From an uncultured Bacilli bacterium (GTDB taxonomy: Bacteria; Bacillota_I; Bacilli_A; RF39; UBA660), in the NCBI GenBank assembly GCA_934168005.1, contig CAKPMN010000002.1, positions 13,876-77,875 on the forward strand: 64,000 bases of DNA, in the 5' to 3' direction. The notes under the pieces were generated by a model that was not told where the DNA came from, ran no database searches, and saw only the letters and a program-made list of their open reading frames with translations. Shown piece by piece: positions 1-16,500 of the stretch. Position 1 is the first letter of the stretch. Each line of letters begins with the position of its first letter. The position numbers were made by a program, and so were the translations under genes.

Positions 1-144
1 ATGTTCTACAGGATTGTATTGATGAGTAAATTCAAACTCTTTTATTAATACATCTAGTTGAGTCTCTAATGTTTTAAGAGCAAATTCATATTTCAACATC
101 AATTCTTGAATTTGACTTTTATTATCAATATCGCTAAAACTCAT
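1..144 (-). CDS. Partial CDS (N-terminus only, runs off window): small alarmone synthetase (RelQ/YjbM-like GTP pyrophosphokinase), tentative
   Basis: Minus-strand ATG at 144 with AGGAG RBS upstream. Translation MSFSDIDNKSQIQELMLKYEFALKTLETQLDVLIKEFEFTHQYNPVEH resembles RelQ N-terminal helix and the H-x-P-I/V-E motif. Confidence 0.4.
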   Translation of the reverse strand, partial: MSFSDIDNKSQIQELMLKYEFALKTLETQLDVLIKEFEFTHQYNPVEH

Positions 145-231
145 AAATCTCCTTTCTAGAAAATAAAGAAATCCTTAAAAAAGGATTTTAATACAACATA
201 ATACTGGATAAACATTATAACACGAAAAAAT

Positions 232-1158
232 TTAAATATCAAGTTGTTCATATTTTACTAAAACTTTATTTCTGCCAGACTCTTTAGCAATATATAATTG
301 CTCATCTGCTAATTGAATTGTTTTGTCAACCACATTGTCAATACCATTCTCTTTTACCAATTGTTGCAAGCAAGCATTGTTTACATGAACAACGCCGAAG
401 CTACAAGATAAGTCAATGAATTTATCCTTATATCTAAAGGGAATAACAGCAAGTCTTTTTCTTAAATTTTCAACTCTGTTAAATACACATTTTTGCTTCA
501 TATTTTTTAATATAAATAAGAATTCTTCTCCACCAAAACGTCCTATAATATCATTTTCTCTACCAAACCCATGACGAGAATTTCTTAGAAATAATTGCGC
601 TATATAATAAAGAGCAGCATCACCTGCTTGATGTCCATAAGAGTCATTAACTTTTTTAAAATGATCAATATCACTCATTACAACAGCGAAATCTTCCTCA
701 GTATCAATAGCACTAGCTAAATATATTTTATAATCTTCTAAAAGCTTACGTTTTAAAAATACACCTGTTGTCTCGTCTATTTGATATGCTAATTCTTTCT
801 TTTTATACTCAGTAATATCTGTAAATCTTAATATTGTATAAGTATGCTCATTTTCTGAATGTCTTATTTGACTAATTTTATAGTATCTTTTTGTTTGTGG
901 GTGATAATATTCATCATTAGTAACTGTAAGACAATTTCTCATATAACTAATAATGCCATTATCTTCTGGAAATATAATGTTTCCACTTTCGTCATAAACT
1001 ATGACTAATGTATCAGGAAAACATTCCAAAAAAGTCCTTAATTCCATATAATCCCCCTCTTTTTCAGCTAAATTTGTATTAATGTACAACGTTTTAAAAA
1101 TTTTGTCAACTTTACTAATCAAATATAACAAAAATGCATACATAGATATTATATTCAA
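232..1158 (-). CDS. GGDEF-domain diguanylate cyclase with N-terminal sensor-like region
   Basis: RFGGEEF active-site motif and surrounding GGDEF-domain context (HQAGDAAL, DIIGRFGGEEFLFIL). Confidence 0.8.
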   Translation of the reverse strand: MNIISMYAFLLYLISKVDKIFKTLYINTNLAEKEGDYMELRTFLECFPDTLVIVYDESGNIIFPEDNGIISYMRNCLTVTNDEYYHPQTKRYYKISQIRHSENEHTYTILRFTDITEYKKKELAYQIDETTGVFLKRKLLEDYKIYLASAIDTEEDFAVVMSDIDHFKKVNDSYGHQAGDAALYYIAQLFLRNSRHGFGRENDIIGRFGGEEFLFILKNMKQKCVFNRVENLRKRLAVIPFRYKDKFIDLSCSFGVVHVNNACLQQLVKENGIDNVVDKTIQLADEQLYIAKESGRNKVLVKYEQLDI

Positions 1159-1162
1159 AAAA

Positions 1163-1196
1163 AACTAATCTATTACAAGATTAGTTAATATATCAT
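1163..1196 (-). terminator. Rho-independent terminator hairpin (9-bp stem AACTAATCT/AGATTAGTT, T-run on minus strand); copy A of a duplicated 34-bp element
   Basis: Inverted repeat plus poly-A on plus strand (poly-T on minus). Near-identical copy at 3588-3621. Confidence 0.55.
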
Positions 1197-1214
1197 GAAA
1201 AAGCTCTAAATAAT

Positions 1215-3524
1215 TCAACTAAATATATCATCTATTTTATCCCACTCACTATTGCTTATTTCAAAAAAATATTCTTTCCCATAAGTATTAGCTTGCCAAT
1301 CATAGTATTCATTATCAATATAAGATTTAATAGAATCTTCAATATTAACGTTGCTTAGAATGTAATCTTCATCTATTTGTTTATTATTTAAATTAAATGG
1401 TAAAGCATCAGTAATGCGCTTAATTCTAACTCTGATTTTCTGTCTGATATCATCTCTTATATCATTGTAATATTTATTTATATATAATCTTTCTAAATCT
1501 TCTAGTTTTCCACTTGCAGGCATTCTTATGTCATAATTTATAGCAGATATTTCTGAAGTTACAAATTCCTGAATGTCATCATTAATGTTATCTAAAACAA
1601 AATTTTGTATAGCGTCTATAAATTGTTCATTAATAATATTATTTTCAGTATTAGTTAATTTTTGCGACTTTACCCATTTAGAGAATATTAATATATTGTC
1701 GTAAGAAAAATTATATAATGTATGTCTTAAATCTTTAAAGATTATCTCATTCAGTTCATAAAAATCGACATATCCTTTTTCTATTAATTCTATAAATAAA
1801 TCATCTTTTCCATAGTGATAATCACAACATAATTGTTCAAATGCTTTTTGAACAAATGATTTGATTTTTAAATCTTTAATTTGATATTCCAATATTATTT
1901 CAAAATAACGACATGAAGTAGACTTATCTACAGACTCTAAATTATTAATATGATTGTTATAAATTAATTCACAAATTATATCCTTATTTTGTTTAAATTT
2001 AATCAGTTGTTCAATATATTTAGCATTATTAATAATTACAAATTGTTCATTTAAATTAGCTGATATTTTTTTCTTCAAAAAATCATTAACAGATGGATTT
2101 ATAACAGAAACATATCTTTTTCGTCTATCAATTATTATCTTTATTAAAGAGTTATTTAATCTATTAATTACTTCATTGAAAATATTTAAAGTTGTATCCT
2201 TTGTATTAGATAGTATTCTTTTATTAAAAGCCTTTTCTAAAATTTCTATTTTGATTTTATCATTTGTGAGTGAATAAAGTGTATTCATTAAGATTCTATC
2301 ATCTTCACTAAGTCTATTTCTAAACTCGTCTTCCCATACACTATCAGGATTATCTAGTTTTGAAATAATATATTCTACATATTCATTTTTTAAAACTTTA
2401 CTATAGTTTTTTTCTTTAGTAACAAATTCTATAATTCTGGGATTATAGTTTTTATGTTTGACTATTGAAAGATAGTTTTTATTTTTTTTAACATCTAATA
2501 AATATTCTATAGGTATTTCATTAAAATAAAGATGATTATATAGTATCTGTGCTTTTTCTAAAAAAGACATTTTATCTAAGTCTATAAGATAATTATCTTT
2601 TTCATACTTATCAAATAAGTTTGCAAAATCTAGTGAAGAAGAATAAGCTTCATTAATTATAGTAATTCTACTATTCATAATTATCTTTTTATTGGGATTT
2701 TTTTCAATGAATGAAATTAAGGCTTTTAACTCATTAGGCTGTTTTTCACTTAATTTTAAATAATGCTGTCCTAAAAAATCATCCAGTAAAACTATCTCTT
2801 TTTTAGCAGGATCACGACTCAATATATTTTTAATATCTTTTATATTATTATCAGTAACATATCTAACAGTATAATTATTACTAGCAAAAAATAACAGTAA
2901 CATTTTAGAAATAGTACTTTTACCAACACCAGGTGCTCCTATAATAATTATAATGTTTTTATCTATTAACTTTTTTCTACATTCAAAATACGAATTTGTG
3001 GTAACAAATAACTTTGTATACTTTTCTATTTCACCTAATATTTCATTGCAATCAACAAAAATACTTTGATTTTGAATCATAGATAAAACATTAGTAGAAC
3101 ATAACCACAATTTATAGTTTTTTTCCAATATATCCTTATTGTTAGTATTAGATAAAAAATCATCAATATCAGTTTTATCAATTATGTAAGACATATCTTT
3201 CATATAGTTTGAAAATAATGAAAAAATCTCTTTTTTTTGCTTAGGAGTTAATTCTATACTACAACAAATATAATAGTTTTCTGGATTTATTTTTTCAATT
3301 TTTACTAGCTCAGATTTTAATGATGATTTTAAATTAGTGAAGTTGCTTTTAACATAATGCTTAACCTGTATAATATGATGAGGCGGAACTTTACTATCAC
3401 ATAAGTCTATTCCACCATCACGTCCCTTTGTAAAACGATGCAATTTCAAAGACAATTTAGCTTCCATTATATCTTTGCATAGAATTTCAAATTCATAATC
3501 ATTCAAATTTGCTAGGCTATACAT
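1215..3524 (-). CDS. Mrr-like restriction-endonuclease-fold domain fused to P-loop NTPase (STAND/AAA-like) with alpha-helical C-terminal region; candidate single-protein defence factor
   Basis: N-terminal FEILCKDIMEAKL...GRDGGIDL...IIQVKHY matches the Mrr_cat D-(E/Q)xK pattern. Walker A GAPGVGKST and Walker B IVLLDDFLG. Long K/N/E-rich helical tail. Confidence 0.6.
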   Translation of the reverse strand: MYSLANLNDYEFEILCKDIMEAKLSLKLHRFTKGRDGGIDLCDSKVPPHHIIQVKHYVKSNFTNLKSSLKSELVKIEKINPENYYICCSIELTPKQKKEIFSLFSNYMKDMSYIIDKTDIDDFLSNTNNKDILEKNYKLWLCSTNVLSMIQNQSIFVDCNEILGEIEKYTKLFVTTNSYFECRKKLIDKNIIIIIGAPGVGKSTISKMLLLFFASNNYTVRYVTDNNIKDIKNILSRDPAKKEIVLLDDFLGQHYLKLSEKQPNELKALISFIEKNPNKKIIMNSRITIINEAYSSSLDFANLFDKYEKDNYLIDLDKMSFLEKAQILYNHLYFNEIPIEYLLDVKKNKNYLSIVKHKNYNPRIIEFVTKEKNYSKVLKNEYVEYIISKLDNPDSVWEDEFRNRLSEDDRILMNTLYSLTNDKIKIEILEKAFNKRILSNTKDTTLNIFNEVINRLNNSLIKIIIDRRKRYVSVINPSVNDFLKKKISANLNEQFVIINNAKYIEQLIKFKQNKDIICELIYNNHINNLESVDKSTSCRYFEIILEYQIKDLKIKSFVQKAFEQLCCDYHYGKDDLFIELIEKGYVDFYELNEIIFKDLRHTLYNFSYDNILIFSKWVKSQKLTNTENNIINEQFIDAIQNFVLDNINDDIQEFVTSEISAINYDIRMPASGKLEDLERLYINKYYNDIRDDIRQKIRVRIKRITDALPFNLNNKQIDEDYILSNVNIEDSIKSYIDNEYYDWQANTYGKEYFFEISNSEWDKIDDIFS

Positions 3525-3587
3525 ATATGCCTCCTATATTCATACTAATATTTGTTTGTCTAATACAATTATAAATCTTTTTTTACA

Positions 3588-3621
3588 AAAAAACTAATCT
3601 ATTATAAGATTAGTTAATACT
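3588..3621 (-). terminator. Rho-independent terminator hairpin downstream of tRNA-His (minus strand); copy B of the duplicated 34-bp element
   Basis: Same stem AACTAATCT-loop-AGATTAGTT with a single loop substitution (c/t). Followed by T-run on minus strand. Confidence 0.6.
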
Positions 3622-3626
3622 CAATA

Positions 3627-3703
3627 TGGGGCGCTCTGTGGGGATCGAACCCACGCATGCCTGAGTCACAGTCAGGTGTGTTAACCGCTTCACCAAGAAC
3701 GCC
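3627..3703 (-). tRNA. tRNA-His (anticodon GTG)
   Basis: Reverse complement gives a cloverleaf: acceptor GGCGTTC.../...GCGCC-CCA, anticodon loop CTGTGAC, T-loop GGTTCGATCC. Confidence 0.8.
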
Positions 3704-3787
3704 ATTTCAAATACATACATATTTTAACAAGATATTTAAGATTTTGCAACCTTTTTTTTAAATATATATAAATTAAGTAAATTGCCT

Positions 3788-3817
3788 ATACGCAAATTTA
3801 CTATAAACCATATGATA
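3788..3817 (+). promoter_or_regulatory. Possible sigma-K-type sporulation promoter upstream of cotJB (AC ... CATATGATA)
   Basis: CATA-N3-TA -10-like element at 3809-3817 with AC about 17 bp upstream, ahead of the cotJB RBS GAGGAGG. Confidence 0.25.
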
Positions 3818-3836
3818 ATCTGAGGAGGAAAAAAGT

Positions 3837-4280
3837 ATGTATCAATACCCAAATGCAAATATAATAGATTATTATAATTATACAAACAATAATTATAATA
3901 AACCAAATTATTCAGAAGATGCAAATGCATCAAAATTATATGATCCATATCAAGGATTTATACGAGGAAATATGTTTCCAAATTTATATAATGGATATAA
4001 AATAAGTAATCCAATAAATATAGAACCAAAATCAGAAAAAGAGGAAATGTTAATATATTTAGACTATTTAGCTTTTGCTGCTCATGATATTAATCTATAT
4101 CTAGATTTATATCCAAAAGATAAAGATATGTTAGAAGCTTTCTCTATGTATAGAATAGAAGCAGATAAGGTAAGAAAACAATATGAAAAAAAATATGGTC
4201 CATTAGAGGTAAATAGTGAAGCAAATACTGTTTATCCTTGGGCATGGGATAATAAACCATGGCCTTGGGAAAAGATATAG
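3837..4280 (+). CDS. cotJB: Spore coat protein CotJB
   Basis: CotJB-like core (LAFAAHDINLYLDLYP, YPWAWD). Overlaps and precedes the cotJC-like gene. N/Y-rich N-terminal extension. Confidence 0.75.
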   Translation: MYQYPNANIIDYYNYTNNNYNKPNYSEDANASKLYDPYQGFIRGNMFPNLYNGYKISNPINIEPKSEKEEMLIYLDYLAFAAHDINLYLDLYPKDKDMLEAFSMYRIEADKVRKQYEKKYGPLEVNSEANTVYPWAWDNKPWPWEKI

Positions 4281-4861
4281 GAGGTTATAATATGTGGAGT
4301 TATCAAAAAAGATTACAATACCCTGTAAATGTAAAGAATAAAGATTTAACTATGGCAAATGCTTTACTTGCTCAATATGGAGGACCTGATAGTGAACTTG
4401 GAGCATGTCTTAGGTACTTAAATCAGAGATATACAATGCCGGATGATAAAGGTAAAAGTTTATTAACAGATATAGCAACAGAAGAAATTGCTCATTTAGA
4501 AATGATTGGAAGTTTAATATACCAACTAATGCAAGGAGCAACTATAGAAGAATTAAAAAGCTTAAATATGAGTGGAACATTTGCAATGCACGATGGAGCA
4601 CTATTTTTAAGTGATCCTAATGGAGTTCCATTTACCACATCTTATATAGAAGCAACAGGAGATTTTATTGCTGATATAGAAAGTGATATGGCTGCAGAGC
4701 AAAGAGCTAGAGCAACTTATGAACACCTAATGGATATGACAAATGATGAAACAGTATTAGGGCCACTATCATTTTTAAGACAAAGAGAAATAGTGCATTA
4801 TCAAAGATTTAAAGAATTAAGAGATTATTATTTAGAAAGTAAGATCCAAAATACTAATTAA
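4259..4861 (+). CDS. cotJC: Spore coat protein CotJC (manganese catalase family)
   Basis: MWSYQKRLQYPVNVKNKD..AQYGGPDSELGACLRYLNQRYTMP..EIAHLEMIG, typical CotJC/Mn-catalase fold motifs. Confidence 0.85.
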   Translation: MALGKDIGGYNMWSYQKRLQYPVNVKNKDLTMANALLAQYGGPDSELGACLRYLNQRYTMPDDKGKSLLTDIATEEIAHLEMIGSLIYQLMQGATIEELKSLNMSGTFAMHDGALFLSDPNGVPFTTSYIEATGDFIADIESDMAAEQRARATYEHLMDMTNDETVLGPLSFLRQREIVHYQRFKELRDYYLESKIQNTN

Positions 4862-4928
4862 AATAATTCACGCAAGGTATTTGTGTAATTAAAAAAAAAT
4901 GATATAATGAACATGTAGGAGGATTTAT

Positions 4929-5468
4929 ATGGAATTAAAAGGTAGTAAAACAGAAAAAAACTTAATAACAGCATTTGCTGGAGAATCTCAAGCAAGAAAC
5001 AAATATACATATTATGCTAGTAAAGCAAAAAAAGAAGGTTTTGAACAAATAGCTGCAATATTTGAAGAAACAGCAGGAAACGAAAAAGAACATGCAAAAA
5101 TATGGTTTAAATTATTACATGAAGGTACAATTCCTTCAACAGAAGAAAACCTTCTAGATGCTGCAAACGGTGAAAACTATGAATGGACTGATATGTATGC
5201 AGCTTTTGCAGAAGAAGCAAAAGAAGAAGGTTTCGATGAAATAGCAAGACTATTTGAAGGTGTTGGAAAGATAGAAAAAGCTCACGAAGAGCGTTATAGA
5301 AAGTTATTAGAAAATTTAAAAGCAAAAACAGTCTTTAAAACAGAAGAAGAAACAGTATGGATTTGTAGAAATTGCGGACACATTCACTATGGTACAGAAG
5401 CACCAGAAGTATGTCCAATTTGTGCACACCCACAAAGTTATTTTGAAAGAAAAAGTACAAATTATTAA
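4929..5468 (+). CDS. rbr: Rubrerythrin (ferritin-like diiron domain plus C-terminal rubredoxin CxxC...CxxC)
   Basis: [18 protein letters not shown], and C-terminal CRNCGH...CPICAH. Confidence 0.9.
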
Positions 5469-5518
5469 GAAAGATAAAATCTTTCTTTTTTTTATAGTAT
5501 AATGAACTTGGTGATAAT

Positions 5519-6106
5519 ATGAAACCATATATGTATGCTTTAAAAAATGCATTGCTATTGGTCCCAATAGTTTCATTAATATTTTTAATAATATACATTA
5601 AACAAGATAAAACAAAGATAAATCATAAGAAAATGATAAGCTTGTATTTCTTTATATTATATATAATTGTTATGTATTTTTTAGTAATATTTCCCCTACC
5701 ACCAATTAGTGAAGTAAAAAATTATACATCAAATTATGTTCAACTAGAGCCACTTTATACAATAAGATATCTAAAAGAAAATATGAGTTTTAACGTTTTT
5801 AATATTGATTCATACATACGCCTCATTAAAAATGCCTATTTTTACCAATTTATATATAATATCTTAATAACAGTTCCATTTGGAATGTATTTAAAAAAAT
5901 ACTTTAGATTGAACCTATTTAAAACAATATTATCTACATTTATATTAAGTTTATTTTTTGAACTAACACAGTTATCTGGTTTATATGGGGTATATCTAAG
6001 ACCATATAGAATATTTGATGTAGATGACTTAATAACAAATACGCTTGGAGGAATAATAGGATATTTTATAAGTGATATAATAAATAAAACAAGAAAGAAG
6101 TTTTGA
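5519..6106 (+). CDS. VanZ-like family membrane protein
   Basis: Multi-TM protein with VanZ C-terminal motif FDVDDLITNTLGGIIGYF. Confidence 0.65.
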   Translation: MKPYMYALKNALLLVPIVSLIFLIIYIKQDKTKINHKKMISLYFFILYIIVMYFLVIFPLPPISEVKNYTSNYVQLEPLYTIRYLKENMSFNVFNIDSYIRLIKNAYFYQFIYNILITVPFGMYLKKYFRLNLFKTILSTFILSLFFELTQLSGLYGVYLRPYRIFDVDDLITNTLGGIIGYFISDIINKTRKKF

Positions 6107-6124
6107 ACATAATGTTCAAAACTT
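6099..6124. terminator. 26-bp perfect palindrome AAGTTTTGAACAT/AATGTTCAAAACTT overlapping the VanZ-like stop codon; terminator and/or operator
   Basis: Perfect inverted repeat followed by T-rich tract. TGTTCAAAA/TTTTGAACA motif recurs at about 6186, 6235 and 6168 in the same intergenic region. Confidence 0.4.
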
Positions 6125-6289
6125 TTATTAAATAGCTATAAAAAAGAACAAAAAAGTGTTATAAATAGTTCAAAAAATGTTTAAATGTTCAAAAATAATA
6201 GAAAATTAGTAAAAAATAATAGAATAAATTGTATTTTTGAACATTTGATATTCAAAAATAACCAGTGTAAAATCTAAATTGGTGAAGTT

Positions 6290-7945
6290 ATGAACAATAT
6301 TAGGTATATATCATTAAAAGAGTTAGATAATCAGATTAATAATTTAAAAATAGATAGTAAAAATCCGATAAGAATATTGATAAACAAATATAAAGTAGTA
6401 AAAAAACAAAGAGAAAGAATCTTAAATAATAAAAAATATATAGAACAAAAAGTAATGGAAAATAAAGCGTTATTAGAAAATATAAAAGGTTGTAGATTAG
6501 ATAAAGAACAAACAAAAGCAATAATAATAGAAGAAGATAGTTGTCTTATAATAGCTGGAGCAGGTTCTGGAAAAACTCTAACTATGCTTGGGAAAATAAA
6601 ATATTTAATAGAAGTAAAAAAAATAGATCCATCAAAAATATTATGTTTATCATTTACTAATGCTATAACTGAGGATTTAAAAGAAGCAATAAGAGAAGAA
6701 ATAAATGTAGAAATGAATGTGTTAACTTTTCATAAACTTGGTTTAAAAGTATTAAAAGAAAACAATGTGAATGTAAAAATAATAGAAGAAAAAGAACTAA
6801 TAAATATAACAGAAAACCATGTAAAAAAATTGAATAAAAATGAAGTATCAAAATATTTTAAAACAGAATTGGATCTAGAAAAACTTATATTAACTTTTAT
6901 AAATTTGTATAAATCTGGAGAATACAAAGACTTAAAAGAAATAAGCAACAAAATAGAAACTGAAAAAAATAGATTTATTAAAAAAAGAAATAAGTATGTA
7001 TTTAAAATAATAACAGATATATACAATATATATCAAAAAAAATTAGAAATGGAAGAAAAAATTGATTTTAATGACATGATAAATGAAGCATCATCACTAA
7101 TAGAAGAAGGATATAATTACCCTAAATATGATTACATAATAGTAGATGAATATCAAGATACATCATATATTAGATATAAGTTATTAAATTTAATAAAAGA
7201 AAAAAACAACTGCCCTATCTTGGCTGTTGGAGATGATTGGCAATCAATATATAGATTTACAGGATGTAATATAGAAATGTTTATAAATTTCAAGAAATAT
7301 TTTAAATATAGTTATATTACCAAAATCCAAACAACATATAGAAATCCCCAAGAATTAATAGATATAGCAGGACTTTTTGTTATGAAAAATCCAAATCAAT
7401 ATAAGAAAAATTTAAAATCAAATAAGAGTTATAATAAACCAATAAAAGTATTTCTCTATGAGTCAGAAGAAGAAATAGATTATATACTAAAAGAAATACC
7501 AAAAGATAGAAAAAGAATCCTTTTATTAGGGAGAAATAATAACGATTTTAAAGATATCAACATAAAAGATAATAGAGTAGAAAAAATGACAGTTCATAAG
7601 TCGAAAGGATTACAATGTGATACGGCAATAATAATAAATCTAAAAAACAGTATAAATGGGTTTCCAAATCAAATGGTAGATGACATTATATTTAAATACC
7701 TATTAAAACAAGATATATATCCATTCGAAGAAGAAAGAAGATTATTCTACGTAGCATTAACAAGAACTAAAAATGAAGTATATCTTTTTTCTCCAAAAAA
7801 TAATCAATCTATTTTTGTAAAAGAACTAATTACATCATTTGAAAATAAAATAGAAATATTATCAAAAAATAATTATTGTCCTCTATGCAAAAATAGATAT
7901 ATTAATAATAAGTGTCCCATTTGTAAAAAGAAAAATATGTTATAA
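6290..7945 (+). CDS. Compact UvrD/Rep/PcrA-family SF1 helicase with C-terminal CxxC-N7-CxxC zinc ribbon
   Basis: Motif I AGAGSGKT, motif II IIVDEYQD, motif III VGDDWQSIYRFTG, motif V TVHKSKGLQCD, motif VI YVALTRTK. Terminal CPLCKNRYINNKCPICKK. Confidence 0.7.
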   Translation: MNNIRYISLKELDNQINNLKIDSKNPIRILINKYKVVKKQRERILNNKKYIEQKVMENKALLENIKGCRLDKEQTKAIIIEEDSCLIIAGAGSGKTLTMLGKIKYLIEVKKIDPSKILCLSFTNAITEDLKEAIREEINVEMNVLTFHKLGLKVLKENNVNVKIIEEKELINITENHVKKLNKNEVSKYFKTELDLEKLILTFINLYKSGEYKDLKEISNKIETEKNRFIKKRNKYVFKIITDIYNIYQKKLEMEEKIDFNDMINEASSLIEEGYNYPKYDYIIVDEYQDTSYIRYKLLNLIKEKNNCPILAVGDDWQSIYRFTGCNIEMFINFKKYFKYSYITKIQTTYRNPQELIDIAGLFVMKNPNQYKKNLKSNKSYNKPIKVFLYESEEEIDYILKEIPKDRKRILLLGRNNNDFKDINIKDNRVEKMTVHKSKGLQCDTAIIINLKNSINGFPNQMVDDIIFKYLLKQDIYPFEEERRLFYVALTRTKNEVYLFSPKNNQSIFVKELITSFENKIEILSKNNYCPLCKNRYINNKCPICKKKNML

Positions 7946-7961
7946 TATCAAAGGTGGTATT

Positions 7962-8228
7962 ATGAATTTAACAGATGAACAAATAAAAAAAATAGTAAAA
8001 GAAGAATATAATCAAAAACAAATGCATAAAATAAGAGAGAACGGATTATTCCTTTCAGATAATGAAATAGATTTATTGAAAAGATATGGTATAGATTATA
8101 AGAACTATTCAAATATTATGCAACTAATATATAAGATAGATGAGATAAATGAAGATGACGATGAAGAGCTAGATTCACTAGCATCATACTTGTCAGAACA
8201 ATACTACTATAATAATGTCAATAAATAG
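7962..8228 (+). CDS. Hypothetical small acidic protein, likely co-transcribed with the helicase (17-bp gap)
   Basis: ORF with upstream GGTGGT RBS. Asp/Glu-rich C-terminus. No recognisable motif. Confidence 0.4.
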   Translation: MNLTDEQIKKIVKEEYNQKQMHKIRENGLFLSDNEIDLLKRYGIDYKNYSNIMQLIYKIDEINEDDDEELDSLASYLSEQYYYNNVNK

Positions 8229-8301
8229 CGAAATTTGACTTTCAAAAAAGTATTTGATATGATATTGCCTGTCTGCTGTAAAAGTTGACAAGAGGTGAAA
8301 A

Positions 8302-8979
8302 ATGAAAATTCAACAAAAGCTGTATCAAAGATTAACGACAGTAGTAGTCTTATCAACAGCTATATTATGTGCTGTATTTGCATCATCACATAAAGATTAT
8401 ACTTATTCAATGCAAGACCTAAAAGAAGCATCGACAACAGAACAAGAAGACTTGCCCTCGTCGATAGAAATAGAAAAACAAATAAGAAATAAGGTTGAAA
8501 CATTAATATCAGATAGAAAAGCTCAAGATGAAGCCGAATATCAAGAATACCTAGCAAGTTTGACTGTATATGATGGACTTACAATGGATGAATTAGCCGA
8601 AAAGTTAGAAAAAAATTTAAATTCAACTTTAGATGGAACAGGAAGAATATTTGCAGAGCGATCTATAGAACTTGGATTAGACCCATATTTAGCCGTTTCA
8701 ATAGTCTTATTAGAAACAGGATGTAATTGGGAATGCAGTCAATTAGTAAAACAATGTTATAACGTTGGAGGTATAAAAGGCTCACCAGGATGTTTTGGAG
8801 GTTCTTACAAGAAATTTTCTTCACTAGAAGAAGGAATAACAAGTTATTTAAACATATTGTATAAAAATTATTATTCAAAAGGACTTACAACGCCAGAGTT
8901 AATGAACCCTAAATATGCTGAAAGTAAAACATGGGCTCAAAAAGTTAATAAGTATATAGAAAAAATAAAAGCAAGCTAA
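8302..8979 (+). CDS. Secreted mannosyl-glycoprotein endo-beta-N-acetylglucosaminidase-domain protein (glucosaminidase family peptidoglycan hydrolase)
   Basis: N-terminal signal/TM. Glucosaminidase-like core LDPYLAVSIVLLETGCNWECSQLVKQCYNVGGIKG. Confidence 0.65.
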   Translation: MKIQQKLYQRLTTVVVLSTAILCAVFASSHKDYTYSMQDLKEASTTEQEDLPSSIEIEKQIRNKVETLISDRKAQDEAEYQEYLASLTVYDGLTMDELAEKLEKNLNSTLDGTGRIFAERSIELGLDPYLAVSIVLLETGCNWECSQLVKQCYNVGGIKGSPGCFGGSYKKFSSLEEGITSYLNILYKNYYSKGLTTPELMNPKYAESKTWAQKVNKYIEKIKAS

Positions 8980-9059
8980 TTGCTTTTTTTTGTGAAAAAA
9001 AATGAATTTTGTTGAAAAGAAATACTAAATTTGTTAGAATTATTTAAGGAGGAGTTAAT

Positions 9060-9653
9060 ATGGCAGAAAAAAAAGTAAAAACAACAAAATCAGTATCAAG
9101 TAATCAAAACGTTAATATAAGAGAAAATACAACAAATGAATTAAATACAGAAATATTAAATAAAATATTAATTTGTCTATATGCGCTAATAGTAATATTA
9201 GTAGTTAATACAGCAATAATATTACTAAAAAATAATACAGTAACAAAAGACTCAACAACAGAAGAACAAGAAACAACAGAGTATGATGTTAGTATGTTTA
9301 CAAAAGTTACTGCTGATAACTTAAAAGAGGCAATTTCAAAGGACGAAGCACAAATAGTATATGTAGGAAGATCAACTTGTGGATACTGTGTAAAATTCTT
9401 ACCTGTACTACAACAAGCACAAAAAGATTATAAATATACTACTTTATATCTAGATATAACAACAGTTACTACAACTGAACAACAAAATAAGATTTTGGAA
9501 CTTGATAATGAAGATAAATTTTTAAGTGAAAACTTTGGAGGAACTCCAATGGTTCTACTAGTAAAAGATGGAAAAATAGTAGATACATGGATGGGATATT
9601 CTGAATATTCAACATATGCTACATGGCTTGAAAAAAATGGATTTACTAAATAG
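9060..9653 (+). CDS. Membrane-anchored thioredoxin-fold protein with CxxC (CGYC) active site
   Basis: N-terminal TM helix. VYVGRSTCGYCVKFLP thioredoxin motif. Similar to bacteriocin-transport-accessory-type thioredoxins. Confidence 0.6.
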   Translation: MAEKKVKTTKSVSSNQNVNIRENTTNELNTEILNKILICLYALIVILVVNTAIILLKNNTVTKDSTTEEQETTEYDVSMFTKVTADNLKEAISKDEAQIVYVGRSTCGYCVKFLPVLQQAQKDYKYTTLYLDITTVTTTEQQNKILELDNEDKFLSENFGGTPMVLLVKDGKIVDTWMGYSEYSTYATWLEKNGFTK

Positions 9654-9667
9654 TAAATCTTTTTTTA

Positions 9668-10207
9668 TTGAAAAATAATAAGAAAATTGATATTATAAGC
9701 TTGGTGATAAACGTGAATGGTATAAAAAGAATAGAAAATTTAATATATATAGTTATCTTTCTGTTAATTATAAATATTTTCGCTACTATTATAAAAAACA
9801 ATAGCGTGCAAACATCTCAAGGAATAAATTTTGACACATCAATGTTTAAAACTATAAATCTAAAGGATTTAGAAAGTTATATAAATGAAGAAAATTATAA
9901 AGTATTGGTAATAGGAAAAAATAACTGTGAATATACAATAGAAATGCTGCCAATATTAAGACAGGCCCAAGCTAACTATAATTATGAAACCTTATATGTA
10001 GATCAAAATAGTATAACAGAAGATGACAAAAATGTACTACTTAGATATGATGATGAAACAAAATTCATAGAGGAATACATAAATACAACTCCCCTAATAA
10101 TAGTTTTTAAAGATAATAGAATGGTAGATACTTGGGTTGGTTACCAAGAATATTCAGTATTTGAAAAGTTTTTGACAGGATTAGGAATAGAAAAAAAAGA
10201 AAATTAA
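9668..10207 (+). CDS. Membrane-anchored thioredoxin-fold paralog with degenerate active site (CEYT instead of CxxC)
   Basis: Collinear similarity to the preceding ORF (VLVIGKNNCEYTIEMLPILRQAQ.., DTWVGYQEYS). Second Cys replaced by Thr. Confidence 0.55.
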   Translation: MKNNKKIDIISLVINVNGIKRIENLIYIVIFLLIINIFATIIKNNSVQTSQGINFDTSMFKTINLKDLESYINEENYKVLVIGKNNCEYTIEMLPILRQAQANYNYETLYVDQNSITEDDKNVLLRYDDETKFIEEYINTTPLIIVFKDNRMVDTWVGYQEYSVFEKFLTGLGIEKKEN

Positions 10208-10268
10208 AAAAAGGTATTGCATAATTTTAAAATTTAATATATAATTAAAAGCGTTCTAGGAAGAACGC

Positions 10269-10357
10269 GCCTGAGTGGCGAAATTGGTAGACGCACAGGA
10301 CTTAAAATCCTGCGGGAGTCAAATCCCGTGCCGGTTCAAGTCCGGCCTTAGGCACCA
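10269..10357 (+). tRNA. tRNA-Leu (anticodon TAA), long variable arm
   Basis: Acceptor GCCTGAG/CTTAGGC-A-CCA, anticodon loop CTTAAAA, T-loop GGTTCAAGTCC. Confidence 0.85.
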
Positions 10358-10366
10358 TAGAAAATT

Positions 10367-10390
10367 AACGGACTTTGTCCGTTTTTCTTT
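10367..10390 (+). terminator. Terminator hairpin AACGGAC-TTTG-TCCGTT plus T-tract after tRNA-Leu
   Basis: Stem-loop followed by TTTTTC. Confidence 0.5.
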
Positions 10391-10427
10391 TGCAAAAATA
10401 CTTTTAATAAAAAAAATAAAAAAACTC

Positions 10428-10456
10428 TTGCCAAACAAAACACAACATGTTATAAT
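10428..10456 (+). promoter_or_regulatory. Sigma-A promoter (TTGCCA-17-TATAAT) for the tRNA-Ser...Pro transcription unit
   Basis: Near-consensus -35/-10 with 17-bp spacer, about 30 nt upstream of tRNA-Ser. Confidence 0.55.
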
Positions 10457-10487
10457 TTGTTATGTAATTGCCACAACTGGTGATATT

Positions 10488-10578
10488 GGAGAAATACCCA
10501 AGTTCGGTTGAAGGGACCGGTCTTGAAAACCGGGAGGTCGGAAACGGCGCGGGGGTTCGAATCCCTCTTTCTCCGCCA
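10488..10578 (+). tRNA. tRNA-Ser (anticodon TGA), long variable arm
   Basis: GGAGAAATACCCAAG... anticodon loop CTTGAAA... T-loop GGTTCGAATCC ... CTCCGCCA. Confidence 0.85.
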
Positions 10579-10587
10579 TTTAAATAT

Positions 10588-10664
<77 letters not shown>

Positions 10665-10665
10665 T

Positions 10666-10742
10666 GGTTCGTTAGTCTAGAGGCCTATGACGTCTGCCTG
10701 TCACGCAGAAGACCACGGGTTCGAATCCCGTACGAACCGCCA
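10666..10742 (+). tRNA. tRNA-Asp (anticodon GTC)
   Basis: Acceptor GGTTCGT/ACGAACC-G-CCA, anticodon loop CTGTCAC, T-loop GGTTCGAATCC. Confidence 0.85.
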
Positions 10743-10750
10743 TTTATTTT

Positions 10751-10826
<76 letters not shown>

Positions 10827-10866
10827 TTTATTTTTGATTAATATTACAATAATTGGTTTGGCAATT

Positions 10867-10943
<77 letters not shown>

Positions 10944-10946
10944 TAT

Positions 10947-11023
10947 CGGGAAATGGCTCAACTTGGTAGAGCACTTGGTTTGGGACCAAGGGGTTGCAGG
11001 TTCAAATCCTGTTTTCCCGACCA
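10947..11023 (+). tRNA. tRNA-Pro (anticodon TGG)
   Basis: CGGGAAATGGCTCAACTTGGTAGAGC, anticodon loop TTTGGGA, ...TTTCCCGACCA. Confidence 0.85.
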
Positions 11024-11033
11024 TTTAGAATTT

Positions 11034-11057
11034 AACGGATATAATCCGTTTTTTTTA
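11034..11057 (+). terminator. Terminator hairpin AACGGAT-ATA-ATCCGTT plus T8 after tRNA-Pro
   Basis: Stem-loop plus TTTTTTTT. Stem sequence related to the hairpin after tRNA-Leu. Confidence 0.55.
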
Positions 11058-11099
11058 TTGCAAAATCAAGTATATTTGGGTAAAATAATAGTATATATT

Positions 11100-11175
11100 G
11101 TTTACATAGCTCAGTTGGAAGAGCATTTCCCTCCGAAGGAAAAGGTCATCAGTTCAAATCTGATTGTAAACACCA
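11100..11175 (+). tRNA. tRNA-Arg (anticodon CCG)
   Basis: GTTTACATAGCTCAGTTGGAAGAGC, anticodon loop CTCCGAA, acceptor TGTAAAC-A-CCA. Own TTGCAA/TAAAAT promoter upstream. Confidence 0.75.
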
Positions 11176-11218
11176 TTGAAAATTAATCATTGTTTGACAA
11201 TAAGATAGTGGTGATAGT

Positions 11219-12295
11219 ATGACACAAGAATTAATAGTAAGAATAATTGGTATGATATTAGTACCATTTACAGTAGTTGTATGCTTTATTCCGTTTGTAA
11301 AAAAGATAGCATTTCAGATTAATGCAGTAGATACACCAAGAGGTGGAAGGCATATTCATAAAAAGATAACTCCAAAACTAGGAGGATTGGCTATATTTAT
11401 AGGATTCCTACTAGGATACATGATATTTGGTACTCATAGTGTACTAATGAATGCGGTATTAATAGGAAGTTTCATAATAATATTAACGGGTGTAATCGAT
11501 GACATAACCGAATTAACAGCTTTGCAACAGTTTATAGGACAAGTAGCAGCAGCGGCGGTATTAGTTTTCTATGGTGGCCTATCCATAAATGAACTAACCG
11601 CATTTGGGTTTAGAATAGATTTTGGAATCATATCACCTTTTGTAACTATGTTTTTTATAGTGGGATGCATTAATTGTATTAATTTAATAGATGGGCTCGA
11701 TGGTTTATCTGGAGGTATTAGTTCTATATACTTTTTAACAACAGGAATAATAGCTGTTATTCAACAAAAATCAGGATTAGACTTCATAATATCATTTATA
11801 ATGCTCGGTTCAACTCTTGGATTTCTTATATATAACTTTAATCCTGCAAGTATTTTTGCTGGTGACTGTGGATCTAATTTTATGGGATTTATGATTTCTG
11901 TAATAGCATTACTTGGATTTAAAAATGTTACATTGACTTCTTTATTTATACCACTTTTAATTATTGCTATTCCAATATTAGATACATTATTCGCAATAAT
12001 AAGACGAGCTCTTAAACATCAACCATTATTTAAAGGAGATAAATTTCATATTCATCATCAACTACTAAATAGAAATTTATCAGTTAAGACAACAGTTATA
12101 ATTATATATATAATAGATTCATTGTTCGCATTAGCGTCAATAGTTTATGTATTAAACGATAAATACCTTGGTTATTTTCTATATGGACTATTGTTATTAA
12201 TAGTAATAACTTTTGTTGCAAAAACAAATGTTGTATTTGATAGTGAAGACATAAAGAAAAAGATAAAAGAAAAAATTAGTAAAAAATCTGAGTAA
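11219..12295 (+). CDS. Glycosyltransferase family 4 undecaprenyl-phosphate GlcNAc-1-phosphate transferase (WecA/TagO/MraY-like)
   Basis: Polytopic membrane protein with NCINLIDGLDGL and DTPRGGRHIHKKITPKLGG motifs of the MraY/WecA family. Confidence 0.8.
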   Translation: MTQELIVRIIGMILVPFTVVVCFIPFVKKIAFQINAVDTPRGGRHIHKKITPKLGGLAIFIGFLLGYMIFGTHSVLMNAVLIGSFIIILTGVIDDITELTALQQFIGQVAAAAVLVFYGGLSINELTAFGFRIDFGIISPFVTMFFIVGCINCINLIDGLDGLSGGISSIYFLTTGIIAVIQQKSGLDFIISFIMLGSTLGFLIYNFNPASIFAGDCGSNFMGFMISVIALLGFKNVTLTSLFIPLLIIAIPILDTLFAIIRRALKHQPLFKGDKFHIHHQLLNRNLSVKTTVIIIYIIDSLFALASIVYVLNDKYLGYFLYGLLLLIVITFVAKTNVVFDSEDIKKKIKEKISKKSE

Positions 12296-13563: not shown

Positions 13564-14211
13564 TCAATGCTTTTCTTTTTTTACAATATCAACAATATAA
13601 TCTATTAAAAATATCTTTTTCTTTTTAATACTAGAGACTTTAGCAAGTACTAAAGTTTTTTCTCTGTACTTTTTATTATACATTGAATTTTCTAGTAAAG
13701 AGCAAACAAATATCCCGTCATTAATAGAGCAATCCTCAATGCGTGCCCATAAAAGTTCACTCTTTTTACCGGTATTTAAAGTCAATTCAACATCGTCTAT
13801 ATAAGTTTCATGTCTAAATTCATCGATATAATCGACTTTTCTAGATTCATTTATTGCTTTCTTTTGATAATAAGAATCAAAATGTTTTTCTAATTGATCA
13901 GTATGTTCGATATTTCTAATTATTATCTCATCAACATTATTAACTTTGTATTTTAGTTTATTAGAAAAAACAATAGAACTCTTATTATAAATAATTTCAG
14001 GATCAAGAGAATATGATTCATTTTCCTTATTTATAAAACCAGCAATTTTAATTTTTAATCCCTCATTGTGATTTATATAACCATAACCAATTAAAATACC
14101 ATCTTCTATATTTATTTTAACTTTTTTACATATTTTTTTAATATCTTTTTTTTCTGTGAAAACAAGCCATTTTCTATCAAGATCTCTAAATTTCATCTTT
14201 CCTAAAACCAT
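13564..14211 (-). CDS. Hypothetical protein (215 aa), no recognised motif
   Basis: Intact ORF convergent with the NUDIX gene. Lys-rich. No identifiable domain by eye. Confidence 0.4.
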   Translation of the reverse strand: MVLGKMKFRDLDRKWLVFTEKKDIKKICKKVKINIEDGILIGYGYINHNEGLKIKIAGFINKENESYSLDPEIIYNKSSIVFSNKLKYKVNNVDEIIIRNIEHTDQLEKHFDSYYQKKAINESRKVDYIDEFRHETYIDDVELTLNTGKKSELLWARIEDCSINDGIFVCSLLENSMYNKKYREKTLVLAKVSSIKKKKIFLIDYIVDIVKKEKH

Positions 14212-14325: not shown

Positions 14326-16137
14326 ATGAAAAATATAAGAAATATTGCTATTATCGCGCATGTTGACCACGGTAAAACAACAATAGTAGACCAATTGCTA
14401 AAACAATCAGGAACATTTAGAGAAAATGAAGAAACAGAAGTAAGAATGATGGATTCTAATGATATTGAAAGAGAAAGAGGAATAACAATTCTTGCTAAAA
14501 CAACAGCTATCAATTATAAAGACTACAGAATAAATATCCTAGATACACCAGGCCATGCTGATTTTGGTGGAGAAGTAGAACGTATAATGAACATGGTAGA
14601 TGGAGTTTTATTAGTCGTTGATGCTTATGAAGGCGCTATGCCACAAACAAGATTTGTACTTAAAAAAGCATTAGAAGCAGGAGTAACTCCAATATTAGTT
14701 GTAAATAAAATTGATAAAGATACAGCAAGACCAAAAGAAGTAGTAGACGAAGTAATAGATTTGTTTATAGAGTTAGGAGCTGACCTAGAACAATTAGATT
14801 TCCCAGTTATTTACATGTCAGCAATAAACGGAACATCTTCATTAGATCCAGATGTATCAACACAAAAAGAAACTATGGATCCAGTATTTGATATGATTAT
14901 CGATACTATACCAGCACCAAAAGTAGATATAGAAGGTTCATTACAATTTCAACCAGCACTACTAGATTATAATGACTTTGTTGGAAGAATAGGTATTGGT
15001 GTTGTTAAAAGAGGAAAAATGAAAGTTAATGAACTAGTTTCTTGTGTTAGAGTAGACGGTTCTATAAAACAATTTAGAATTCAAAAAATGTTTGGTTTCT
15101 TAGGATTAAAGAGAATAGAAATAAATGAAGCTGAAGCAGGAGATATAGTTGCAATAGCAGGTTTACCAGATATTTGTGTTGGAGAAACTGTATGCGAAGT
15201 TGGAAAAGAAGAGGCATTACCTTTACTACGTATAGATGAGCCAACATTACAAATGACATTTGGAGTAAATACTTCACCTTTTGTAGGAAAAGAAGGAAAA
15301 ATAATAACAGCTAGAAAAATTGAAGAAAGACTTCTAAAAGAAACAGAAAAAGACGTTTCTTTAAGAGTTGAACCAAATGATAATGAATCATTTATAGTAT
15401 CAGGTAGAGGAGAACTTCACTTATCAATATTAATTGAAAATATGAGAAGAGAAGGTTTTGAATTACAAGTATCAAAACCAGCAATAATCAAAAAAGAAAT
15501 AAATGGAGTTGTATGTGAACCATTTGAAGATGTTCAAATAGATGTTCCAGAAGAATATGTGGGATCTGTAATAGAGGCACTAGGTAACCGTGAAGGAACA
15601 ATGGAAAACATGACTAATCATGAAAATCAAGTTAGATTGATTTACACAATTCCATCAAGAGGATTAATTGGATTTACTACAGAATTTATGACTTTAACAA
15701 AAGGATACGGTATTTTAAACCATACATTTAAGGAATATAGAAAAATGGCTGGGGCAACAGTTGGAGAAAGAAAACTTGGAGTTTTAGTTTCAATGGAAAA
15801 CGGAAAAGCTACAGCTTATGCTTTAGGTCAATTAGAAGATCGTGGAATTATGTTTATAGAGCCAACAGCTGATGTTTATGAAGGAATGATAGTTGGTGAA
15901 CATTCACATGAAAATGATTTAGCTGTAAATGTTGTTAAAGGTAAAAATTTAACAAATACAAGAAGCTCAAGTAAAGATCATACAGTAGTTTTAAAAAGAC
16001 CAAGACAAATGAGCTTGGAATATTGCTTAGATTATATTAATAGTGATGAATTAGTAGAAGTTACACCATTAAGTTTCAGATTACGTAAAAGAATATTAAA
16101 TACACAAGAAAGAAAGAAATTTGATAGTAAAAAATAA
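14326..16137 (+). CDS. typA: Translational GTPase TypA/BipA
   Basis: AIIAHVDHGKTT, DTPGHADFGGEVER, NKIDK. EF-G-like domain order. About 600 aa. Confidence 0.9.
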   Translation: MKNIRNIAIIAHVDHGKTTIVDQLLKQSGTFRENEETEVRMMDSNDIERERGITILAKTTAINYKDYRINILDTPGHADFGGEVERIMNMVDGVLLVVDAYEGAMPQTRFVLKKALEAGVTPILVVNKIDKDTARPKEVVDEVIDLFIELGADLEQLDFPVIYMSAINGTSSLDPDVSTQKETMDPVFDMIIDTIPAPKVDIEGSLQFQPALLDYNDFVGRIGIGVVKRGKMKVNELVSCVRVDGSIKQFRIQKMFGFLGLKRIEINEAEAGDIVAIAGLPDICVGETVCEVGKEEALPLLRIDEPTLQMTFGVNTSPFVGKEGKIITARKIEERLLKETEKDVSLRVEPNDNESFIVSGRGELHLSILIENMRREGFELQVSKPAIIKKEINGVVCEPFEDVQIDVPEEYVGSVIEALGNREGTMENMTNHENQVRLIYTIPSRGLIGFTTEFMTLTKGYGILNHTFKEYRKMAGATVGERKLGVLVSMENGKATAYALGQLEDRGIMFIEPTADVYEGMIVGEHSHENDLAVNVVKGKNLTNTRSSSKDHTVVLKRPRQMSLEYCLDYINSDELVEVTPLSFRLRKRILNTQERKKFDSKK

Positions 16138-16157
16138 AATATCTCATATGAGATATT

Positions 16158-16379
16158 TTATTTTTCGAAGAATTTACTTATTTCAACATTTAAAGAATCG
16201 GCAATCTTCTCTAATGTGTCAATTGATATAGATTGATAAGTAGTAGACTCTAATTTTGCTATAAAACTATCACTTAAAAAGTTTATTTCAGCAAGTTCTC
16301 TTTGAGTAATTCCTTTTTGTTTTCGATATTTTTTAATATTTTGACCAATAATATTGTAAATATTAATTTTTTGTTCCAT
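16158..16379 (-). CDS. XRE-family helix-turn-helix transcriptional regulator
   Basis: HTH_3 pattern KYRKQKGITQRELAEINFLSDSFIAKLE. Confidence 0.75.
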   Translation of the reverse strand: MEQKINIYNIIGQNIKKYRKQKGITQRELAEINFLSDSFIAKLESTTYQSISIDTLEKIADSLNVEISKFFEK

Positions 16380-16421
16380 ACTACCACCAATTTAATTTTC
16401 TCATGTTCTCAAAAATATAAT

Positions 16422-16440
16422 TATAGACAATTAGTCTATA
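16422..16440. promoter_or_regulatory. 19-bp palindrome TATAGAC-AATTA-GTCTATA in the XRE / ABC-F divergent intergenic region; candidate operator
   Basis: Perfect 7-bp inverted repeat arms between divergently transcribed regulator and ABC-F genes. Confidence 0.35.
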
Positions 16441-16500
16441 TATAGTATGACAAAATAAATAAAATCAATACATTTATGATATAATAAAGAAGGTGTTTTT

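Follow-up and report, generated by a model that had tools for sequence, protein, structure and literature searches.

In a 64,000-nucleotide (nt) stretch of an uncultured Bacilli genome (GenBank assembly GCA_934168005.1, contig CAKPMN010000002.1, forward-strand positions 13,876 to 77,875), here called the window, a single gene encoding a protein of 769 amino acids (aa) lies directly 3′ of tRNA-His between two nearly identical hairpins. Its product is predicted, from its sequence and a structural model, to be an accessory, Avs-like antiphage STAND NTPase with a nuclease effector. We favor, with a probability of about 0.6, the explanation that this 2.4-kb islet is a recombinase-less remnant of a tRNA-His island of a family with a large serine recombinase, that the cargo arrived as the end gene of that island, and that the hairpins are copies of the host's tRNA-His terminator. 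A preliminary description of the locus, made from the letters alone, had noticed the bracketed gene; beyond it, the gene is cargo of a tRNA-His serine-recombinase island family, and the site is still used in some strains.

The hairpin on the GGDEF side of the gene is referred to as copy A and the one on the tRNA side as copy B. On the plus strand, copy A reads c AAAAAAAA CTAATCT ATTACA AGATTAG TTAATA t and copy B reads c AAAAAAA CTAATCT ATTATA AGATTAG TTAATA c, the differences being one loop base (C/T) and one additional A. A pattern made from the 26-nt core, with up to three mismatches allowed, matched exactly twice in the window and not at all in 100 dinucleotide-preserving shuffles, and a general repeat search of the window recovered the same pair as one repeat family (D2). 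The sequence, the repeat search, and the shuffles all bear out the near-identical 34-nt duplication around one 769-aa gene 3′ of tRNA-His that had been described at first, with the correction that copy A had been placed about 6 nt too far to the right (1163-1196); copy B had been placed to within 1 to 2 nt. Similarity drops sharply at the borders of the 33- to 34-nt unit when the flanks are compared against shuffled sequence. A long duplication that later decayed is disfavored in the window, since similarity beyond the unit is no better than in shuffles.

Folding of the minus strand gave each copy a 9-bp stem and a 6-nt loop (centroid, −8.5 kcal/mol), with the copy A stem at 1163-1171/1178-1186 and its loop at 1172-1177; the T run after the stem is 8 nt in copy A and 7 nt in copy B. 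The hairpins with 7 to 8 T that had been proposed are therefore real features of the predicted fold. Copy A starts 25 to 28 nt past the stop codon of the inserted gene, and copy B starts 8 nt past the CCA of tRNA-His. By the usual description of an intrinsic terminator, both have the stem-loop with its U tract and the position 3′ of a transcription unit, and both lack the G+C-rich stem. A generic terminator scan, which needs at least three G-C pairs, calls neither hairpin, because the stems have only two. Genomes with a G+C content near 28% commonly have weak terminator stems, and a terminator function of both hairpins is plausible from their sequence at 28% G+C. The probable role of copy B is to end transcription of tRNA-His and to keep read-through into the defense gene low; copy A probably terminates the defense gene and insulates the conserved GGDEF promoter. 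The inserted gene is potentially toxic and has no convincing promoter of its own. The leader ahead of it contains TATAAT without a good −35 element, and a consensus scan calls no promoter there on the minus strand; a predicted tRNA-His promoter could be a source of read-through into the gene.

No copy of the hairpin was found in JGI metagenome contigs or in IMG/VR, although the species is apparently absent from the JGI set, so that empty sites would be undetectable there. With two copies in the window and none in these collections, a dispersed repeat of the REP or MITE type was ruled out, and the element is not the genome-wide repeat that would have made the duplication uninformative. In other species of the clade, tRNA-His is followed by related hairpins of the type (A)ACTA...TAGTTTTTTTG. 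Measured from the end of the tRNA, the window repeat spans +8 to +40, starting where the 14-nt core of the islands described below (−5 to +8) stops; it excludes both the 3′ segment of the tRNA and the GCCCCATATTGA core.

Gene surroundings were read for the five closest nonidentical homologs of the inserted gene (loci L090, L091, L093, L098, and L100; L numbers denote sequence loci outside the window). All five are associated with islands: each is the end cargo either of an island whose family has a large serine recombinase or of a remnant of such an island. Three lie 3′ of an intact tRNA-His gene, and the other two loci hold no intact tRNA gene. We defined this tRNA-His serine-recombinase island family from L019, L090, and L025. 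The most similar homolog (78% identical) belongs to a complete island at L090, where tRNA-His is followed by a 96-aa gene, the recombinase, further genes, YunG, and, last, the nSTAND3 gene; the right end reads ...GGGTGCAAAACTCGTTTGTTTATT up to the junction and GCCCCATAT beyond it, followed by the host hairpin. The recombinase, 96-aa, 187-aa, and YunG proteins of L090 are 91 to 96% identical to those of L019 (95 to 96% for the recombinase), and the end slot is occupied by nSTAND3 in L090 and by a KAP NTPase in L019. L098 (73%) has the right-end motif, core, and host hairpin as in L090. At L100 (65%), two decayed islands stand in tandem. Both open with the core, two hairpins, and a 91-aa gene; the final gene of the first island is nSTAND3.

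The remaining two homologs lie in remnants with bracketing repeats. L091 (73%) retains only a YunG-UDG fusion gene and nSTAND3 beside tRNA-His, with no recombinase. Direct repeats of 397 nt (95.5% identical), beginning within the tRNA at GCCCCA, enclose the two genes; the island right-end motif precedes the distal copy. At L093 (74%), the order is cotJC, cotJB, tRNA-His, a decayed YunG-UDG gene, nSTAND3, Fic, and a methyltransferase. Here a 65-nt repeat (89%) of the host tRNA-His terminator, starting 7 nt after the tRNA, forms the bracket, and a degenerate right-end motif lies ahead of its distal copy. This architecture is that of the window. In L091 and L093, the repeated sequence is each host's own tRNA-His flank and was not carried with the gene. 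The pattern common to L091, L093, and the window is pared down furthest in the window, to an intact attachment site (tRNA 3′ end, core, and terminator), island-derived cargo lacking a recombinase, and another copy of the terminator. The repeats start at −5 (397 nt, L091), +7 (65 nt, L093), and +8 (33 nt, window) relative to the tRNA end.

Two further observations concern these islands. The L091 repeat (6565-6960 and 10398-10793) contains a strong ribosome-binding site and a 27-codon open reading frame (ORF) for a hydrophobic peptide, MGKKDFLILSLIIIIILLIALLFITLK, which could be a type I toxin-like gene duplicated with the tRNA-His terminator. The YunG-UDG gene (about 300 aa) lies 13 to 17 nt upstream of nSTAND3 in L091, L092, L100, and L101, is present as a 48-aa fragment in the same position at the contig start of L098, and is truncated to YunG (117 aa) in L090. 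It also precedes the KAP NTPase in L019 (3759-4664), and the window gene is without it; no homology is recognizable between the leader of the window gene and the 3′ end of YunG-UDG, which lies ahead of the gene in relatives. YunG-UDG could belong to the conserved genes of the islands or could work together with the end-slot NTPase.

Contigs of the same species, found by exact-protein look-ups of the GGDEF protein, CotJB, and the inserted gene, came from Hadza and other human-gut metagenomes and from the metagenome-assembled genome GCA_902462405.1. The gene is present on each contig that covers the interval, and contigs that include both ends have both hairpins; this also applies to a lineage in which the GGDEF protein is just 94% identical. 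Independent assemblies from at least eight samples show the arrangement, which is thus not an assembly artifact. Across the conspecific loci read, copy A is identical apart from one variant in L097, and A and B keep their own private differences in all strains, which indicates that the copies are not being homogenized.

Two of these conspecific loci, L010 (1-5790) and L019 (1084-9784), have an 8.7-kb member of this island family lodged exactly between tRNA-His and hairpin B, inserted at the point that corresponds to the attachment core of the window. Its genes encode the 96-aa protein, a 451-aa serine recombinase, two metallo-beta-lactamase-fold proteins (both with Pfam Anti-Pycsar_Apyc1 matches), DUF218, the 187-aa protein, YunG-UDG, and the KAP NTPase, which has 858 aa and matches PifA in PADLOC. 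The left end consists of the core, TTTACGCACACCTTTGTGTG..., a second hairpin, and the 96-aa gene. The L019 island is flanked by a 14-nt direct repeat, GCCCCATATTGAAA, that includes the last 6 nt of the tRNA, and the window matches the attachment core with no mismatch over 12 nt. Hairpin B stands just outside the far repeat and is therefore host flank (the B′ side) for the L010/L019 island. Since an island of this family sits between tRNA-His and hairpin B in some conspecifics, the regenerated tRNA-His site is still competent for integration of the family. Next to the 578-aa version in L090, the 451-aa recombinase of the L019 type seems to have lost an internal segment.

A scan with CotJB, one genome per species, gave 66 related species (uncultured Bacilli, "Tenericutes," CAG:822, and "Candidatus Coprosoma"), 37 of which have tRNA-His upstream of cotJB within the locus. 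None of the 66 loci has a homolog of the inserted gene within 10 kb by tblastn. The closest GGDEF homolog outside the species (67% identical) is in L096, a sister-species locus that runs from the region upstream of cotJB through tRNA-His, two hairpins, DUF5661 (85 aa), and GGDEF to RelA_SpoT without the inserted gene. By BLASTN, L096 positions 1-208 match window positions 3831-3623 (90%) and positions 600-1714 match 1112-1 (77%). Between these matches lie 391 nt in L096 and 2,510 nt of unrelated DNA in the window; the alignment breaks at 3622/3623, the tRNA-side breakpoint falling at the end of GCCCCATATT, and resumes at 1112. The L096 site and the 66 species support the earlier proposal of a tRNA-adjacent single-gene insertion into an otherwise core context. 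Constant presence of the gene with both hairpins in relatives, an outcome that the preliminary description had set against insertion, was found within the species and not at the next taxonomic level. Because all conspecific contigs read carry the insertion and the next taxonomic level is without it, the insertion is old and fixed in the sampled population.

Other DNA occupies the same place in related loci. In at least 11 of the 37 species with tRNA-His at the locus, the sequence after the tRNA is that of the island left end, and the 96-aa gene, the recombinase, or YunG-UDG is detectable in at least 10 of the related loci; the right-end motif has no match in the 66 loci at up to five mismatches. 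Other sister loci hold an insertion sequence, a PDC-S02 nuclease, resolvase fragments, or the recombinase fused to an MkoC-like helicase. These left ends and other insertions at one place make the tRNA-His 3′ flank a busy integration hotspot in the clade. In the fused case (sister species L025, 1204-4734), the serine recombinase and an SF1 helicase part (MkoC/MkoA in PADLOC) form one 1,176-aa ORF. At L026, a DDE transposase has landed in the island left end, beside a PDC-S02 (YhcG-type) nuclease. DUF5661 was considered as the islands' first gene and rejected, being homologous to neither the 96-aa nor the 91-aa island gene; it recurs beyond the islands in L100 and is therefore probably native.

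The window islet itself shares some features of this family and lacks others. It lies 3′ of a tRNA gene and is absent from relatives, as expected of a genomic island, but has no recombinase of its own and no tRNA 3′ segment in its repeats. By contrast, repeats that include the attachment core are present at the L019 island (14 nt) and at L091 (from −5). Neither ORF calls nor profile searches of the window gave a recombinase gene between hairpins A and B, in agreement with the initial statement that no integrase is carried. The cargo gene common to complete members (78% identical to that of L090) stands at the family's attachment site, but the conserved ends are missing: neither the left-end motif nor the right-end motif (GGGTGCAAAACTCGTTTGTTTATT) occurs in window positions 1-12000.

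We propose that the islands of this family use the large serine recombinase to insert at the tRNA-His 3′ end and that the nSTAND3 gene came in as end cargo of one of them. Copy A would be the host terminator that the integrating island displaced from the tRNA, and copy B would be the terminator returned when an intact attachment site was regenerated beside the tRNA. Two routes could lead to this outcome. A right-end fragment may have been aberrantly excised with some host flank and have recombined, Campbell fashion, back into an empty site. Alternatively, a tandem duplication of the island right end and its flank may have been followed by normal excision of the complete copy. By either route, attB would be regenerated, the recombinase removed, and only the end-proximal cargo kept. 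Repeats with one border set at the att crossover and a second border that varies are the pattern expected from insertion-duplication. We infer the order of events and the recombination route from the end products.

Several observations weigh against this explanation. The conspecific contigs read show neither an empty site nor a complete island carrying nSTAND3. Neither the right-end motif nor the GCCCCA core is present in the 28 nt that separate the stop codon from copy A (matches are no better than in shuffles), and a further deletion or a different right junction must therefore be assumed. The sequences that follow the two copies (62 nt for copy B, 109 nt for copy A) resemble each other no more than shuffles do, and the same holds for the preceding flanks; the flanks retain no residual similarity although the loops are identical at 5 of 6 positions, which suggests that the A/B duplication was short (about 34 nt) from the start. 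A homology of 34 nt is a poor substrate for RecA-type Campbell recombination. The L096 site carries DUF5661 and is not a perfect site with GGDEF and tRNA-His separated by one hairpin, so that the suggested search for an empty site in relatives yielded a locus without the gene but not one reduced to a single hairpin. The G+C content of the gene (22.6%) gives no signal of horizontal transfer next to that of the window (27.7%) and of neighboring core genes (21 to 32%). Finally, the terminator function of the hairpins and the defense function of the gene are predictions from sequence and modeling.

An unlikely alternative is that hairpin, leader, and gene form a minimal, self-contained cis-mobilizable cassette without an integrase, with the 34-nt hairpin as an att core shared with the tRNA-His terminator and a site-specific recombinase acting in trans, in the manner of Campbell integration and of the cis-mobilizable elements (CIMEs) discussed below. 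The same low weight covers a variant in which two islands integrated in tandem and each hairpin is the left-end (P′) terminator that one of them brought. The A/B repeat resembles att cores in its sharp borders and near-perfect identity, and its stem is a perfect 9-6-9 palindrome that could plausibly bind a recombinase dimer. Islands of the family do have hairpin terminators of their own directly behind the core, and in the tandem islands of L100 the core and hairpins of the next island come after the gene. However, copy A lacks the GCCCCATATTGA core used by the only recombinase known at the site, and the equivalent repeats of 397 nt (L091) and 65 nt (L093) are too long and too variable for a site-specific core. 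Hairpin B as host flank of the L019 island calls for an intact attB rather than attL, the hairpins of known island left ends differ in sequence, and neither a circular form nor a second location was seen, the hairpin being absent from the JGI metagenome contigs and IMG/VR.

We think it doubtful, too, that the tRNA-His serine-recombinase islands systematically "deposit" their end-proximal defense cargo through recurrent aberrant excision or duplication-excision. Under such deposition, the last cargo gene would be left behind, the attachment site regenerated, and the host terminator duplicated; the defense gene would be insulated and the hotspot left open for the next island. The end product that this predicts is present in three species (the window, L093, and L091); their repeats measure 34, 65, and 397 nt, respectively, and each begins at the recombinase core or right beside it.

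Very little speaks for a gene that was ancestral at the locus and lost in relatives, with the second hairpin arising by local duplication or gene conversion of the terminator. Its presence in all conspecific contigs read, together with both hairpins wherever both ends are covered, and its unremarkable G+C content are what this history would leave, but the gene is missing from the locus in all 66 related species and in L096, its closest homologs elsewhere are cargo of mobile islands or of island remnants, family members occur on a phage and on plasmids, and it is a pseudogene in one strain, as is typical of accessory defense genes. Least probable of all are a transposable unit with hairpin ends (IS200/IS605-, PATE-, or REP-like) and an integron cassette whose hairpin would resemble attC, the two hairpins then being ends for a single-strand transposase or an integron integrase: direct repeats with hairpins around a single cargo gene superficially resemble the left- and right-end hairpins of IS200/IS605 elements or attC sites, but there is no TnpA, TnpB, RAYT, or IntI gene nearby or in any conspecific locus, only two copies exist in 64 kb and none in the two public collections, the hairpin is of the type conserved as tRNA-His terminator in the clade, and the equivalent repeats in L091 and L093 reach well beyond the hairpin. 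The IS200/IS605 and integron-cassette readings were rejected for want of a matching enzyme and of further copies.

The protein encoded by the inserted gene matches Pfam nSTAND3 (E = 1.4e−39; residues 173 to 334) and, at its N terminus, Pfam Mrr_cat (E = 9.3e−5; residues 5 to 59; 23 bits against a cutoff of 21). Almost its entire length is covered by PDC-S73, a single-gene candidate profile of PADLOC (E = 7.9e−138; residues 2 to 769 against profile positions 4 to 750 of 752), and no Avs model of PADLOC and no NCBIfam model matched. In an alignment of 34 homologs that are 41 to 78% identical, D36, D40, Q53, and K55 of the Mrr-type D...D...QxK motif are invariant, as are Walker A residues G196 to K202 (GAPGVGKS, 195 to 202) and Walker B residues D248 and D249. 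An AlphaFold2 model (pLDDT, 82.6; pTM, 0.70) had its best fold matches in the PDB with Avs4 bound to phage portal (8dgf), SAMD9, the AVAST5 filament (9nc9), and Apaf-1; global TM-scores were low, as expected for a flexible multidomain protein. A sequence search of the PDB found no relative. It is likely that the Mrr-type domain serves as putative nuclease effector, the nSTAND3 ATPase as switch, and the helical C terminus as sensor. PDC-S73 was not mentioned in any paper found in a literature search, and hence no experimental test of it was found. At E ≤ 1e−10 the protein has 877 homologs. Homologs occur on the temperate Clostridium phage HM T (43% identity over 78% of the length) and on 47 plasmids; the phage and plasmid homologs are usually annotated as "restriction endonuclease." In strain ERZ27287257 (L002, 3524-5833; contig shared with L011 and L022), two ORFs of 429 and 287 aa are called in place of the gene, which is therefore a pseudogene there.

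Annotation of the surrounding genes agreed with the neighbors first named, GGDEF on one side and tRNA-His with cotJB and cotJC on the other (Table 1). The tRNA-His gene encodes both G-1 (3703) and CCA, and the island attachment core overlaps the encoded CCA. A TTGACA...TACAAT pair that matches the promoter-like site of the GGDEF gene is present ahead of that gene in L096. The GGDEF gene is followed by a small alarmone synthetase of the RelA_SpoT type (window 1-147; N terminus cut by the window start), and this second-messenger pair is syntenic in L096. Elsewhere in the window, the end of a cluster of eight tRNA genes (10269-11175; from about window position 11050 onward) has the appearance of a second tRNA-linked hotspot: conspecific L021 has a tyrosine-integrase element there (15113-17343; a 361-aa Phage_integrase protein and small ORFs), and in the window the cluster passes straight to a glycosyltransferase gene.

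Table 1. Features of the islet and its surroundings, in window coordinates
Feature	Position	Strand	Basis and remarks
GGDEF diguanylate cyclase gene, 271 aa	232-1047	minus	Pfam GGDEF, E = 6.9e−28; TIGR00254, E = 6.8e−34; native neighbor, distal side of insert
Promoter-like site of GGDEF gene (TTGACA, 17 nt, TACATT)	1081-1109	minus	Consensus scan
Hairpin copy A, terminator-like, after inserted gene	1157-1190	minus	Sequence, repeat search, folding
Inserted gene, 769 aa	1215-3524	minus	ORF call; predicted Mrr-type PD-QxK nuclease, nSTAND3, and helical C-terminal region
Leader between hairpin B and start codon of inserted gene, 62 nt	3525-3586	minus	Direct sequence reading
Hairpin copy B, terminator-like stem-loop of tRNA-His	3587-3619	minus	Sequence, repeat search, folding
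Island attachment-site core, GCCCCATATTGA	3621-3632	minus	Last 6 nt of tRNA-His (encoded CCA included) and 6 nt downstream
tRNA-His (GTG)	3627-3702	minus	ARAGORN; Rfam tRNA, 60.7 bits
Promoter-like site for tRNA-His (TTGCAA, 17 nt, TAAAAT, upstream TG)	3721-3749	minus	Consensus scan only
cotJB (147 aa) and cotJC (Mn-catalase-like, 189 aa)	3837-4861	plus	Pfam CotJB and Mn_catalase; conserved neighbors, tRNA side

Taken as a whole, the locus is most likely a decayed, fixed single-gene defense islet, a known kind of genome variation in a poorly studied lineage. It documents a tRNA-His hotspot for serine-recombinase islands in an uncultured, low-G+C gut Bacilli lineage, with an end slot that carries alternative defense NTPases, either nSTAND3/PDC-S73 or a PifA-like KAP NTPase, and it shows a single defense gene becoming a fixed, recombinase-less resident while the site stays usable. 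The attachment core and the island end motifs are searchable and can be used in annotation. Only one aspect is out of the ordinary: immediately outside the att core, the host terminator has repeatedly been duplicated. This is a small mechanistic puzzle and not a new kind of element.

Among known systems, tRNA-gene islands and their decayed islets resemble the window locus in lying directly 3′ of a tRNA gene, in being absent from relatives, in carrying defense cargo within a direct-repeat bracket, and in the reuse of the site by a related island in other strains (tandem accretion). Unlike most of them, this family uses a large serine recombinase rather than the usual tyrosine integrase, the window remnant is without a recombinase, and its repeat comprises only the host terminator after the core, whereas a classical att repeat includes the tRNA 3′ end. 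Accretion of CIMEs and integrative and conjugative elements (ICEs) is known from ICESt1/CIME in Streptococcus thermophilus, and CIMEs keep functional att sites on both sides. The islet is similarly an integrase-less, repeat-flanked module beside a site where a complete element of the same family integrates (the composite array of L019), but its distal repeat is without the recombinase core, and mobilization in trans is therefore not expected. Campbell insertion-duplication, as in λ dgal-like transducing derivatives and suicide plasmids, likewise duplicates host flank around foreign DNA with one boundary at the att crossover and the other varying (34, 65, and 397 nt in three species); it differs in that no phage or vector is visible here, the 34-nt homology is very short, and the route is read from end products.

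The protein differs from the Avs/AVAST systems in matching no Avs model of PADLOC despite its full-length PDC-S73 match, and it is much shorter, at 769 aa, than Avs4, which has an Mrr-like nuclease. Avs5 combines nSTAND3 with SIR2 (bioRxiv 10.1101/2025.07.08.663546); the nSTAND3 domain is common to both proteins, but the predicted effector of the window protein is an Mrr-type nuclease and not SIR2. With the Avs proteins in general it shares the arrangement of an N-terminal effector, a STAND P-loop NTPase, and a helical C-terminal region.

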